Assembly (NCBI GenBank): GCA_965645245.1 | Contig: OZ287071.1 | Location: 1,984,001 to 2,048,000 of the forward strand | Direction of reading: 5' to 3' | Length of the DNA: 64,000 nt | DNA from: Massalongia carnosa | Lineage: Eukaryota | Part shown: positions 688 through 57,327 of the stretch, piece by piece | How positions within the stretch are numbered: position 1 is the first letter of the stretch | Layout of the letters: each line of letters starts with the position of its first letter | The notes under the pieces: generated by a model | The model's database searches: none | Told to the model about the DNA's origin: nothing | What the model saw: only the letters and a program-made list of their open reading frames with translations | Program-made: the position numbers and the translations under genes

Positions 688-1134
688 TTATAACGGAGAC
701 GCCAAAGGCCTCACCGTGGGGCGAACGTCAAATATATTGATTTGCTCCTATCTCTTTGCATCAAAACAATGCTAATTTAACGCGTTTACACGCGTCGCAG
801 ACGTACGTACGGAAGAGGATACGAAGGCCAACCGCCGGGGGTAGAATGCGCGCGTCCCTGCACCATGCTTCTAAGGGTTCAAGTCCCTTTATGCAGTTAT
901 CAGCTGGAAGAAGATGTGGACCAAAGGAGCCGCATCATCCCCCACCCGGGCACAGTCGACACGCGTTCTAGCTCCTGAGAGTTCAAGTCTACCCATGCAG
1001 TCATCAGCTGGGATCAACAGATCGCGTAAAGGCACCGGGGCAAATGCTGTCACCTCAAGAAAACTCCATCTCGGAGCAGAATAAAAATATCCCATTTAAT
1101 AGGACCGGCCTGTTAAATAAATCGTGGAAAACAG

Positions 1135-1265
1135 AGAGTCACAAAACACATTGTCATCAATTATACGTTGTACAAAGTACACAGTTACAAAGCACACAGT
1201 CACAAAGCACATAGTCACAAATATACAGTCATAAAACACACAGTAACAAAAAATACAGTCACAAA
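1135..1265. repeat. Degenerate ACACAGTCACAAA minisatellite inside element X
   Basis: Repeated CACAGTCACA units; variable copy number at 11335-11497 and 28265-28380. Confidence 0.85.
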
Positions 1266-2215
1266 TCAATAACACGTCCCTGTGAAGGGGGTTCTGCGGG
1301 GGCTCGTTAAGACAGATCTGCACCCCGTTAATATCGGAATACATATTTTTAGAGGTTCAAGTCCTATTTAGCAGTCATTAGCTGAAAATAATGTATTTTG
1401 ACTCGAGCATGGTTTGGATTTCACTCGGGTAGACCTCGATGGATCACAAAACGAATGAAAAGAGTTCAGCTGAACTTCGTTAATATTGTTCTCGAAGACC
1501 TCGTTAATAAGATTTTCATAGACCTCGTTAACAACGTTCGGTCCTACTATTAAAGGTTCAATTCCTTTCATGCAGTTATCGGCTGAGAGCTAAAGAAGTA
1601 CGACACGGGTCAGCTATTTCTATCTCACGGGTCTCCTTCGTCTACAACACGGAGCCCTCCGGCTGAAAGAAATAAAACATATGGACACATAGAGTAGGGT
1701 CACACCCTACACGATACAAGAGATTTAGGTTATGAAAACTATCCGATTAATGGCTACCGTGAGCAACACGGCCCGAACCGGAGTCGTACCGGGGATGGTG
1801 GAGGCAACCTAGTCATTAAATAGGACACCCTTGGGACAAGAAGAGGGCAATATACGAGGAACCCGTTAATTGATAACAGTCTAGGCCCTGAGCTAATAGA
1901 CGAATTTCAAACGAGCACCCCTCCGAGTTGTCTTCGACTCCTTTTGTGCGCATGTCGGTGTATATAGAGCAGGAAATGTCTATCTCGCTCGTAACGAGAC
2001 CCCGTCGGTTCGCCGGCGCATGGGCTACGGCTAGACTCGCCCTTGATATATGCTTAAGGAGTAAATTGGGTTCGACTTGGGCAAAAGGGACGTCGTTTAC
2101 CCCGATCGTAGAATTCATCAACAGTCTTGGGCCGTAAAACGCACCAGTAAGATGAACAAAAACTGGGATAGAGACTTCACAAAGGAGATGTCAAATCTAT
2201 TTTATCACTCTTAGT

Positions 2216-2335
2216 CCGATTTGAACTAATCGCATCTTTCAAAAATTTGACGTTACAAGCAACAGCATTTTCGAATAAATACAATTGCAATAAAGCCGAT
2301 TAGAATAAATTCGCGAAGTATCTAGACGAAAATTC
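2216..2335 (+). mobile_element. Short LINE-A ORF2 fragment (end of endonuclease region)
   Basis: Matches 7070-7190 and 12997-13112. Confidence 0.8.
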
Positions 2336-2341
2336 AACCAT

Positions 2342-54400: not shown

Positions 54401-54504
54401 CTGTGATTGCATACGTGCATGTCCGCTGCGCTTTCTAGTAGCCAGGTGTCTCTGTTGGGATGGTTGATGGTCATGACCTTCTGTAGAGTGGTAGTCATGA
54501 CCAC
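51450..54504 (-). pseudogene. pol: Copia pol, truncated and with catalytic substitutions
   Basis: As 19804..23100, but cut by the solo LTR. Confidence 0.9.
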
Positions 54505-54510
54505 TGTGAG

Positions 54511-55446
54511 TCAACTGCTCACTGTGGGAGTTGTAGTGACTGTGGTGGCTGGAGTTGACGTGGTGACTTCTGGCTGGGAGTTCTTTTGTCTCTTGACCCT
54601 CCCTGATTCAGCCGTGTCTCCTCTCGCCCGTTTTAGATGGGGGAATTTCTGGAAACACTCATCTGGCCAATGTCGTGTTCTGTTCCTATTTACACACTCT
54701 GAAACGGTGCAACTTCCGATAGGTGCTCTACCTCTGTTGGAAGCGCCAGTGTGAAAAGCCTTGACAGTTAGGTTTCGTGCATAGGCTATGAGGATTTTTG
54801 TTGTTTCCGAAAGGTTTGTGGTGTCGTGCGTCCAGTCCCTGCGGAGTTGTGCAATGAGCGGGTCATACTTGTCTGTGCAGTTACCAAGCAGCATTCCCTG
54901 AAGTACAAACTCTATGGAGTCGACGTTCACCTTGACCTCTTCGATCAACATGCCCTTGATCTTATTGAAGGCACCGTCATACTCTGAACAGTATTGACTG
55001 ACTTTGTCGAAGTCTCTCATCTTTTTCGTACTAACCCTCAAGATGACATCCGTGATGCTCATTGGTGCCACGTCCTGGAATCTATTCTTCAGAATGGCCC
55101 ACATCTCGGCAGCGGTCTTGTTATTGATGAGGTTGTAGTGACATGGTGCAACCAGTCCATGGATGATTCCAATAGCCTTGGTCATCTCGGTTTTCTGTCT
55201 GTTCTTATCATCCCGAAGTTCTTTGACGAGGATGCTGGTAGTAAGACTGGCCGGAGTAAACCCTGATATGATGAGGCTCTCTCTGATGGAGTCCAATGAG
55301 ATCTCTGGTTGGGTTTCCAGAATGGCTGTGTCACAGTTATTCTTCAGCAGAATACCTCTGGTGTAACTAGCCCATGCTGAGTAGTGTTCCGAGTTCTCTA
55401 GAAGGTGAGGCTTCTCTGTGGAACTGTTGATGTCAGGAAGAGACAT
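54511..55446 (-). CDS. gag: Copia gag
   Basis: Nearly identical to 23107..24042. Confidence 0.88.
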   Translation of the reverse strand: MSLPDINSSTEKPHLLENSEHYSAWASYTRGILLKNNCDTAILETQPEISLDSIRESLIISGFTPASLTTSILVKELRDDKNRQKTEMTKAIGIIHGLVAPCHYNLINNKTAAEMWAILKNRFQDVAPMSITDVILRVSTKKMRDFDKVSQYCSEYDGAFNKIKGMLIEEVKVNVDSIEFVLQGMLLGNCTDKYDPLIAQLRRDWTHDTTNLSETTKILIAYARNLTVKAFHTGASNRGRAPIGSCTVSECVNRNRTRHWPDECFQKFPHLKRARGDTAESGRVKRQKNSQPEVTTSTPATTVTTTPTVSS

Positions 55447-57327
55447 GATGAAGTCAGATGAAGATGAAGAAGAGGTCTCTAGTAAACTTCTGTAGATTGA
55501 AAGATATCTAAGTTTCTGAGATTGGTGCAGGAGTAGGATGTGCACTGGAATGAATGGAGGAGATGGGAATATGTGATCTAGTTATAGACAAAATATTTCC
55601 CTTCCTTTGTCATCAAACTGTGATGTTCCTTTCTTTGCCACAACGCTTGTACCCTCATGAAAGAACTCTCTTCAGATGGTGAAACTTTCACTTGGTGGTG
55701 TGGAGATAGGGGGCTGTCGGAACCACGGTCCGACCGTTCCATTTAATAGGCCGGGCCTGTTAAATGGAATAAAGGTTTTTCCGGATTCCGAATTTCCGGA
55801 TTGAGGCGTTCTGCTTAATTGAAGTCTGATTACTCCATCTGTATACGCGTAGACTAGTCGGAAAGTCTGTTAATGAATGATGCAGCAAGGAGCAAAACCT
55901 TGGAACTGAATTTCCTAAGTCTGTCTCTGGATCAAAGTATGTTGAGTGGTGATGCAGCAAAAGTCAGAATGAAGTCTGCCCTTGGGTCAACGTCAGTCAT
56001 TTGATGATTCAGCAGAAATCGGACCCTGAAAAATGGTTTAGATGGTCGGTCTCTGGGTCAAAGTAAGTTGAGTGGTGATGCAGCAAAAGTCAGAATGAAG
56101 TCTGCCCTTGGGTCAACTTCAGTCAATTGATGATTCAGCAGAAATCAGAGTTTCATGAGTGGTCAAGGCCGCGCTGCGCGGTTTTTGAACAAAACTCAGT
56201 GAAAAGGTCTGTTCCTGGGTCAAAGTCAAATGAATGATGATGCAGCAGAGGTCAATCGTTGGAACTGGTCTACTGGAGTTCTGTCTCTGGGTCAAAGTCA
56301 AATGAATGATGATGCAGCAGAGGTCAATCGTTGGAACTGGTCCACTGGAGTTCTGTCTCTGGTTCAAAGTCAAATGAATGATGATGCAGCAGAGGTCACT
56401 CATTGGAACTGGTCCACTAGAGTTCTGTCTCTGGGTCAAAGTCAAATGAATGATGATGCAGCAGAGGTCACTCATTGGAACTGATCCACTGGAGTCTGTC
56501 TCTAGGTCAATGTCAAATGAGTGATGATGCAGCAGAGGTCAAACCTTGGAGCTAGTCCACTGGAGTCTGCCTCTGGGCCAAAGGTCAAATGGATAGTGAT
56601 GCAGCAGAGGTCAAACAATGGAATTGGTCCACTGGAGTCTGCCTCTAGGTCAACGTCATCCTCCGGAGTGCCTCTCAGATATTCGGGCATGAGAGCATTC
56701 TGATGGTCTGATATGAAGAGAGTGTCTTCTGATGCTTGTAGTCTGGCAAAGAGCCTCTCTGCTTATGATGTAGATGATTTCCATGCTCTTTCTGATAACC
56801 CTTTGTAGGTAGGGAACGATGGATCAGGTGGCGTTGTTGTTAAACGTCTCTATCTGATTGAGAGGTTGTCATGATGTGCTTTCACGAAGCTGTTCAACTA
56901 GCTAGACTTGCGGGTGCGAATCCCGCCTGGTTCAGGTCTGTAAACAAGTAGAGATTTAGTCTTTGCATTGTCCGTCTAGTTCTTTTCGAGAAAGGATAAT
57001 GATGCTCAGCTAATGATTTTGCATCGTGATACTGCGGATAAGAATTGCTTCGATTCCTGTATGATCGATAGCGCCCTTCCGGGCTCATAACCTGTTGAAT
57101 AGGTCTATGACTATGGCTATATGTATGTAAAGATAGGGGCCTGTATGACAATGATGTTAAGGATGCAGAGTTGCTACGGAGTGCAGAGCAATCTGTTCCT
57201 TTTTATATTGGTCACCTCTGCTAAGCGAGATGATAATAGTTTATCCGAGCCTCTATGCGATTAGATTAGATCTGATATTATCTAATCTATCGGCTATGCA
57301 ATGCTGGTAGAAGTTGAACATTCAACA

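Follow-up and report, generated by a model that had tools for sequence, protein, structure and literature searches.

A 25-bp palindrome is shared nearly letter for letter by retroelements of different superfamilies in a 52-Mb fungal genome, although retrotransposon cis-signals are normally family-specific. Its centre is one base long at 172 sites and three bases long at another 50, against 0 in the controls, and a genome scan gave 138/141 against 0/0. Its spread over unrelated lineages, local conservation and tolerance of position point to a putative factor exploited in common by several unrelated retroelement families. Our preferred reading, tentative and at a little under an even chance, is that a sequence-specific dimeric protein recognises the palindrome on DNA, that short-patch exchange or substitution has spread it, and that selection has kept it.

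Palindrome sites in the window

The window, which is the whole analysed stretch of 64,000 nucleotides, contains six copies of the palindrome, compared with none in each of 50 shuffles. All six read as claimed in the first-pass annotation, including the single change in the first X copy (Table 1). The extension of the copia leader dyad to TTCC..GGAA was confirmed at both copia sites. The gypsy variant does lie in frame in the protease-RT linker, inside an open pol frame (33614-36559, minus strand) with a protease match (aa 63-167, scoring under the Pfam cut-off) and an RT match (aa 403-559) on either side. The other two frames contain TAA at this palindrome, so the encoded peptide is forced. 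The palindrome arm is the only 12-mer common to X, copia and gypsy A in the window.

Table 1. Palindrome copies, associated boxes and carrier elements in the window
Feature	Position	Strand	Remarks
Palindrome, X copy 1	1094..1118	+	one change (GGACC)
Palindrome, X copy 2	11296..11320	+	461 nt past start of stretch taken as X
Palindrome, X copy 3	28223..28247	+	
Palindrome, copia C1a leader	24349..24373	-	about 300 nt upstream of gag start; dyad extended by TTCC/GGAA
Palindrome, second copia C1a copy	55741..55765	-	TTCC..GGAA extension
Palindrome, gypsy A pol	35872..35898	-	in frame, protease-RT linker
TCGGA box, X	11273..11277	+	18 nt before palindrome; equal offset in gypsy B and elements C, T
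TCGGA box, copia	24325..24329	+	19 nt from palindrome, antisense side of element; flank score P=0.0001, 17 flanks scored
Element X copy 1	534..2214	+	internal deletion; then short sense LINE piece 2215-2337
Element X copy 2	10836..12640	+	non-coding; 5' 23-bp tandem units; fixed 3' end; joined to 5'-truncated LINE
Element X copy 3	27596..29523	+	joined at 29522 to 5'-truncated LINE
Copia C1a element	19507..25862	-	identical 235-bp LTRs (19507-19741, 25628-25862); gag 23107-24063, pol 19804-23106
Second copia C1a copy	51450..57327	-	3'-truncated
Gypsy A gag and pol frames	33614..37209	-	

Elsewhere, the relaxed pattern gave 33 matches in 596 Gb of prokaryote genomes, which we take as background only: 22 came from one Clostridium repeat and none of the 33 had the strict core. 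Viral contigs yielded no pattern match and no relatives of three pol proteins, and no Rfam family matched the window at its gathering score. Contigs from four sequenced runs matched positions 19800-37400, none of them at the motif sites among the 40 listed of about 1785 matches. The literature searched, with subscription journals mostly outside the search, held no description of the motif letters or of shared palindromes in fungal retrotransposons.

Carrier families

All sites with flanks that were read belong to retroelements, namely a copia clade, two gypsy lineages (A and B) that are 22% identical in pol, elements C and T, which are small non-autonomous LTR elements, and element X. Element C, initially considered as 'gypsy C', is an LTR element of 2.4 kb in its own right. 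The 157 locus matches (104 distinct contexts) are part of the 222 counted sites, with weaker sites lying outside the genome-wide scan, and all 157 fell within retroelement clusters, two apparent singletons being decayed relatives of T and X. None of the 157 was in a host gene, which would be odd for a host transcription factor, and there was no DNA transposon among the carriers read. Half-sites at three further loci (L070, L072 and L088) arose by accident at junctions where a different small repeat ends.

Position within the element is free. The palindrome is found in the leader in the copia clade, and inside pol or another ORF in gypsy A, gypsy B (both in frame in pol), element C and the metagenome copia L093; the places include the PR-RT linker, the start of pol, the IN-RT linker and an orphan ORF. 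Mapped carriers have one copy per element, often in coding sequence. Two orphan ORFs, one of 470 aa in C and a 277-aa frame in gypsy B, had no Pfam hit and no usable Atlas hit, and provided no candidate binding protein. Most large gypsy and copia families, and most intact LTR families, lack the motif, judging by coordinates and by sites that fit the listed patterns or differ by at most one mismatch.

Element X as a LINE chimera

Element X was listed in the first-pass annotation as a transposon family, but by its structure is a non-coding RNA fused to 5'-truncated LINEs: a sense LINE adjoins X in 27 of 29 copies, an antisense LINE in none, and the other two had no LINE match. This recalls WEIRD/MINE of Magnaporthe, in which a complete non-coding 5' part runs in sense into 5'-truncated LINEs, with junctions at varying positions (PMC2104539). 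The likeness concerns architecture, and X differs in its length of 1.75-2.3 kb, its 5' tandem units, its joining to at least two LINE families and its longer chains; the parts of that article available to us mention no palindrome for WEIRD/MINE. Judged by its structure, X is a WEIRD/MINE-type LINE-chimera RNA, probably copied by the LINE machinery and not packaged as an LTR genome, and would be a second fungal case of such chimeras.

Conservation of the palindrome and its flanks

We compared subfamilies within the carrier families. In gypsy A the motif is identical at 25/25 positions with flanks at 79-80%, and between copia C1a and C1b at 24/25 with flanks at 63%; windows as good as the motif make up 2-2.5% in these pairs. 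In local searches, copia leaders could be aligned with one another in only a few patches, of which the motif is one, and the same holds for X and its decayed relative. Subfamily pairs of gypsy B and of element C showed no conservation peak (32% and 14% of the windows were as good), and among X copies the motif is no better conserved than the remaining X sequence.

The flanks, described in the first-pass annotation as unrelated, indeed do not align among X, copia and gypsy A, but a weak extension is common to several families: YCGGA about 18-19 nt off one end of the palindrome, with CCRYTCC adjoining it, is present in X, gypsy B and elements C and T, and copia has it in inverted form. The extension is thereby found in both orientations relative to transcription. 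Element T has the whole site inverted, so that a single fixed orientation of the site was rejected. When the upstream flanks of X, gypsy B and elements C and T are compared in pairs, five of the six pairs share 12-16 of 24 positions, where about 6 are expected, which suggests common origin.

Such flank agreement speaks for a passenger patch, a single palindrome of little or no function that would have spread among retroelement RNAs or cDNAs because palindromes promote both template switching and gene conversion. The structure of X shows that RT template jumps are frequent here, and the many successful families without the motif also fit. We nevertheless regard this explanation as improbable: the motif is conserved above its flanks in the gypsy A and copia pairs and across leaders that cannot be aligned, L093 carries it without an indel, and the ten separate flank clusters show no cross-family join or exchange at the site.

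Constraint on letters

The exact letters, beyond self-complementarity, are kept across copia, the two gypsy lineages, X and L093. Since the five coding carriers all use nearly identical codons, and one arm change alters a residue, the constraint appears to lie on the nucleotides. Selection for a peptide, FNRPGLLNQ, in polyprotein linkers would account for the same peptide in all coding carriers, but is the least credible of the explanations considered here, given the single open frame, the fixed codons, the non-coding carriers and the three-base-centre forms, which disrupt the peptide. Among 1.84 billion representatives, an HMM search returned no more than one relative and one chance repeat protein. 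The protein P0006, with ten peptide-like matches, was discarded as an unrelated repetitive protein.

Variation is found mostly at half-site positions 7-8, in either arm. The commonest variant falls at CpA, the most mutable context here (102 of 217 columns against about 0.25-0.31), and therefore says little about recognition.

DNA site or RNA hairpin

The first-pass list of readings overlooked an RNA-level alternative of nearly equal weight to a DNA site. The palindrome could form a hairpin of 11-12 bp with a loop of 3-5 nt that either converts into a duplex between two RNA molecules, as a dimer contact and co-packaging signal like PAL1-PAL2 of Ty1, or is bound by a host RNA-binding protein for export, stability or localisation, and non-autonomous elements would keep it to ride with their helpers. 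Among the 157 locus matches the palindrome is confined to RNA-mediated elements, and the copia clade has it in the leader just upstream of gag. The Ty1 stem, likewise in the 5' UTR and with a 3-nt loop, is needed for Gag-induced RNA dimers according to PMC6844567. Structure prediction for ten carriers gave the hairpin in every one, which is trivial for a palindrome. The sense-strand centre base is C in all six one-base-centre carriers (five independent; p ~0.06). Copia C3 and L093 have an A-T to C-G change in both arms, the centre is widened by 2 bp with intact arms in copia C2 and C3, and copia stems extend with differing letters; these features would be natural for a hairpin and speak against the DNA-site reading.

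Other observations do not favour RNA. The antisense strand folds equally well or better in most carriers. Large subfamilies commonly have mismatches in the sense-strand stem, A-G in the case of gypsy A and C-A in that of copia C1a and gypsy B, without a preference for G-U over C-A. Both sides of the stem changed in 2 of 11 pairs, a covariation score that was reached by 48 of 500 shuffles and is not significant. X is mobilised by LINEs, most intact LTR families lack the motif, and the flank extension and element T are inverted. Finally, any palindrome would serve for dimers, which leaves the identical letters across superfamilies unexplained. On balance we consider the RNA element a serious but rather doubtful alternative.

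The site for a dimeric protein, as proposed in the first-pass annotation for several TE families, fits best, but the types of factor suggested there (anti-silencing, insulator, centromere) are indistinguishable. Under this reading, the palindrome would be a cis-acting recognition site with two half-sites of 11-12 bp, ATTTAAY(A/C)GGC[C], read on integrated DNA. We infer that the reader would be a sequence-specific dimeric protein of this group of fungi. In the simplest case it would be an activator or an anti-silencing factor, through which any element with the palindrome is transcribed more strongly. Unrelated retroelements may have acquired the palindrome separately, either by copying a short patch of equal length out of another carrier or by substitutions where their own sequence already matched in part, with selection then presumably keeping the acquired copies.

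Probable gain in place

The metagenome copia L093, whose RT is 35% identical to that of the window copia, has the palindrome in frame. Because its relatives, at 83-87% identity, are without the motif, three of them without any length change, the palindrome in L093 was apparently gained in place, as judged by parsimony on protein relatives.

These relatives also bear on the earlier suggestions that a tiny mobile unit left the palindrome as its footprint or that the palindrome is a recombination site. Such a unit could, for instance, consist of 13 bp flanked by TTAA duplications in an ATTTAAAT target, and the recombination would be site-specific. The motif does parse as TTAA + 13 bp + TTAA, and the gypsy A linker that contains it exceeds that of a relative with 56% identity by about 65 aa. 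A 17-bp insertion would, on the other hand, break the pol frames, and the three L093 relatives without the motif have the same length. Of 31 half-sites, 30 were read, and none marks a long element with half-site ends. Only two spacings occur in numbers in the genome, spacers of 4 and 6-30 being absent from the genome scan. Recombination sites of the lox/FRT type have a centre of 6-8 bp, longer than the 1-3 bp here, and no site joins the flanks of two families. Neither version is supported, and we consider both very unlikely.

A site shared in this way, which in one coding linker seems to have evolved where it stands, would be a ready probe for a putative fungal factor used by several selfish elements. 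Two questions become testable with it, TE activity in a genome with weak repeat mutation and the sharing of control sequences by unrelated elements. A broader proposal is that the palindrome is a 'public', lineage-wide cis-signal, with one putative factor that would serve elements as different as copia, gypsy, non-autonomous LTR elements and a non-coding RNA riding on LINEs, all of them converging on its site by in-place change, even in pol. If X goes back to a non-coding RNA of the host, an origin suggested for WEIRD, retrotransposons may mimic the control element of that RNA. We think this unlikely, though worth stating; if true, it may represent a general, undescribed layer of fungal retroelement regulation.

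Comparison with known systems

Host DNA-binding proteins are known to act on retrotransposons, such as Ste12/Tec1 on Ty1, and Sap1 and CENP-B homologues on Tf LTRs. According to a review (PMC7175516), these proteins also act on host loci and each on one element group, in contrast to the absence of host sites among our locus matches. The anti-silencing VANC targets of Arabidopsis VANDAL elements are likewise sequence-specific TE sites, and VANC6 motifs are also present in the unrelated AT9TSD1. According to PMC5735166, VANC sites are 8-9 bp, non-palindromic, tandem and non-coding, with a known TE-encoded protein, unlike the single long dyad here, which is often coding and for which the orphan ORFs yielded no candidate protein; tandem multiplication of the VANC type was not seen in mapped carriers.

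The PAL1-PAL2 words of Ty1 are similar in having self-complementary arms around a 3-nt loop and, for the copia carriers, in their leader position. They are however 6-7 nt long, lie at the RNA 5' end and are reported as conserved among Saccharomyces Ty1 in the same article, whereas the palindrome has arms of 11-12 nt, no fixed position, and letters common to several superfamilies.

The Conserved Hairpin Site (CHS) and extended CHS of GalEa copia elements also form a conserved non-coding dyad across families within one fungal species. According to PMC5445492, the CHS consists of two words of 9 bp that adjoin the 5' LTR, in the place of the PBS, in one copia clade. That restriction does not apply to the palindrome, which both gypsy lineages, elements C and T, and X have as well. 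It differs from the CHS in sequence and in its coding frames, and lies about 1250 nt past the LTR (element position 1490) in copia, in addition to its occurrence in gypsy, non-autonomous LTR elements and a LINE chimera. In the window copia, the LTR is followed not by the 9-bp CHSeq1 but by a different, conserved PBS-like tract.

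Occurrence and carriers of the palindrome

All six palindrome sites claimed in the first-pass annotation of the window, in element X, the copia C1a leaders and gypsy A pol, were present as described. With up to 3 mismatches allowed, the 25-mer had 6 matches in the window and none in 50/50 shuffles, and the only 12-mer common to X, copia and gypsy A was the palindrome arm. The genome scan proposed alongside also bore out the claim, with 138/141 matches to the original pattern in the 52.16-Mb genome against 0/0 in the control. The corresponding figures were 199/198 versus 0/0 for the 25-mer with at most 3 mismatches and 172/172 versus 0/0 for a relaxed dyad. 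Copia C2 and C3 had a centre two bases longer than standard, a form present at 50 sites in the genome; a shorter spacing occurred once, and spacings of 4 and 6-30 between the arms were absent from the genome.

Clustering by flanks of 157 locus hits, which represent 104 distinct contexts and include some sites twice, yielded ten clusters: X and a decayed relative, copia C1 (two subfamilies and a two-copy fragment), copia C2, copia C3, gypsy A, gypsy B, element C, element T and a decayed relative of T. Pol identity was 74% between copia C1 and C2 and 22% between gypsy A and gypsy B. The leaders of copia C1 and C2 resemble each other at the PBS, around the motif and in one small patch, and nowhere else. 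Elements C and T are non-autonomous and possibly not independent of gypsy B, because all three have the same PBS. At least four independent motif-carrying lineages remain in the genome, namely the copia clade, gypsy A, the gypsy B group and X. Among the gypsy RNase H matches listed for contigs 1-9, a list that favours high-scoring families, 1 of 72 had a listed motif site within 5 kb. Of 12 copia matches related to L093, a metagenome copia with the motif, one was separated by 4.9 kb from a site belonging to a different family, and the other 11 were at least 19 kb away. Judged from these sequences, the motif is not general among the retroelements of the genome.

Element X

Element X is non-coding and has a fixed end, whereas its start consists of 23-bp units that vary in number. 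We examined its junctions at 30 loci, one of which was dropped for want of a recognisable end. A G preceded the start in 11/29 copies, as would be expected if a cap had been reverse-transcribed. The DNA next to the X end matched a LINE protein on the sense strand in 27 of the 29 copies and on the antisense strand in none, which fixes the plus strand as the sense strand of X. The joined LINE parts were nearly always truncated pieces that began right where X ends, at positions that varied, and they came from at least two LINE families. A carrier of the motif therefore exists outside the LTR elements. The anatomy matches that of the Magnaporthe WEIRD/MINE chimeras, in which a non-coding part is joined to truncated LINEs, as far as these are described in the text available from PMC2104539.

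Several of the X copies in the window and in L114-L143 were also preceded by LINE pieces, giving chains of template jumps. The fixed 3' end resembles the 3' end of an intron. Short CA-rich repeats directly follow the palindrome in one window copy, which also holds a repeated unit (see table). Among the X copies in L114-L143, the frequency of C-to-T changes at CpA was roughly double that elsewhere, which points to a mild bias of the RIP-like or methylation kind, with long ORFs still intact.

Occurrence beyond this genome

In a metagenome collection, strict scanning gave a single match, L093, in which a perfect palindrome with position 8 changed in both arms lies in frame in the integrase-RT linker. 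The match is unlikely to be due to chance, since the strict core occurred in 0 of 33 relaxed matches from 596 Gb of prokaryote genomes. The best match to L093 in the fungal genome was 52% in RT. The motif was absent from the linker of all 20 copies fetched from that genome, one of which had a weak match elsewhere, and the motif peptide from 10/10 L093 protein relatives. Pol identity was 83-87% for five relatives, of which three aligned across the site without gaps, with a partly similar peptide. By parsimony, with relatives compared as proteins, the site in L093 would have arisen in place, by substitution or same-length patch replacement; an ancestral motif lost in the relatives, again compared as proteins, is possible. 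The peptide was present in a gypsy A relative at 82% and absent from three at 43-56%, one of which had a linker about 65 residues shorter.

Of the 33 relaxed matches, 22 came from a REP-like palindrome dispersed in Clostridium polyendosporum (L183-L214). Its arms are similar and its centre is different, and we took it as unrelated.

Conservation, flanks and possible function

The motif stood out locally by its conservation in gypsy A (25/25 versus 79-80%) and in copia C1a/C1b (24/25 versus 63%), with no clear peak in gypsy B pairs, element C pairs or among X copies. Variation fell mainly at half-site positions 7-8, and the commonest change was at CpA, the most mutable context. We tentatively favour a DNA site that would be read by a putative dimeric sequence-specific protein, because the letters outweigh pairing, the site is tied to neither a position nor an orientation, and an RNA carried by LINEs retains the motif. 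Close behind comes an RNA hairpin or dimer contact resembling Ty1 PAL1-PAL2, as described in the text available from PMC6844567, a somewhat doubtful alternative. In its favour, retroelements are the only carriers and no host site was found among the locus hits read, and loop widening and double changes leave the stem intact. Stem covariation was not significant. Selection for a peptide motif fits worse than either and is hardly credible: codons were nearly fixed in coding carriers and one arm change was non-synonymous, and the peptide is forced because the other two frames contain TAA.

The centre base was C on the sense strand in 6/6 carriers with a one-base centre. X, gypsy B, C and T also had a weaker extension in common, YCGGA at a distance of 18 nt from one end. 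A matrix built from these flanks scored the opposite-side flank of copia C1a (P=0.0001), C2 (0.007) and C1b (0.013), in a test picked after the data were seen and covering 17 flanks; the extended site therefore occurs in both orientations relative to transcription. The flanks had been called unrelated, with homology counting against the proposal. This was partly contradicted by the flank common to X, gypsy B, C and T, an indication that short-patch copying accounts for part of the spread, while a single capture does not explain the cases of copia, gypsy A and L093. A passenger patch accounts for the data less well than the DNA site or the RNA hairpin and is improbable, and a footprint or recombination site, likewise a poorer fit, is very unlikely.

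Cis-elements common to several TEs are an already known kind. The motif is not the GalEa CHS as presented in the passages compared from PMC5445492, the supplements of which list extended-CHS sequences, and its sole likeness to VANC targets, as far as the available text of PMC5735166 describes them, is being common to unrelated TEs. Our literature search found no description of this motif. What is new is that a dyad as long as 25 bp is shared between superfamilies, lies in coding frames and was apparently gained where it stands.

Other sequence features

The window consists of nested fungal retroelements (LINEs, two copia copies and two gypsy elements), with a DDE_1 transposase and a DUF6589-helicase pair that we take to resemble an AcademH-type DNA transposon. 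From these types of element the host was judged to be a filamentous ascomycete. Element C has one intact 470-aa orphan ORF, which contains the motif, is hydrophobic in its N-terminal part and had no match in Pfam or Atlas; nor had the additional conserved frame that gypsy B keeps open between its pol and 3' LTR. Copia C1, C2 and C3 have long leaders, each with tandem arrays of its own. A leader piece of C1b with the palindrome sits between two other repeats and is probably a remnant of nested insertions. One copy of a window repeat, which may be a short mobile unit or a solo LTR, breaks a gypsy pol frame.

Coordinates of features in the window and in fetched loci (L-numbers)
Feature	Location	Remarks
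DUF6589 protein and DEAD/Helicase_C protein	window 58772-63777	opposite orientations
Repeated unit in X copy	window 10836-12640	~40 bp, four times; offsets about 231, 338, 739, 940
Window repeat	window 31868-32039, 32268-32439, 41489-41655	~170 bp
Copia C1 leader array	window 24485-25193, 55872-56658	unit about 72 bp
Copia C2 leader array	L149:3466-4720	unit about 74 bp
Copia C3 leader array	L157:5064-5314	unit about 50 bp
Copia C1b leader piece	L097:3044-3115, L098	~72 bp
Gypsy B extra frame	L051:8481-9311	
Element C	L102:4285-6669 (G000:C6)	2.4 kb, 332-bp LTRs
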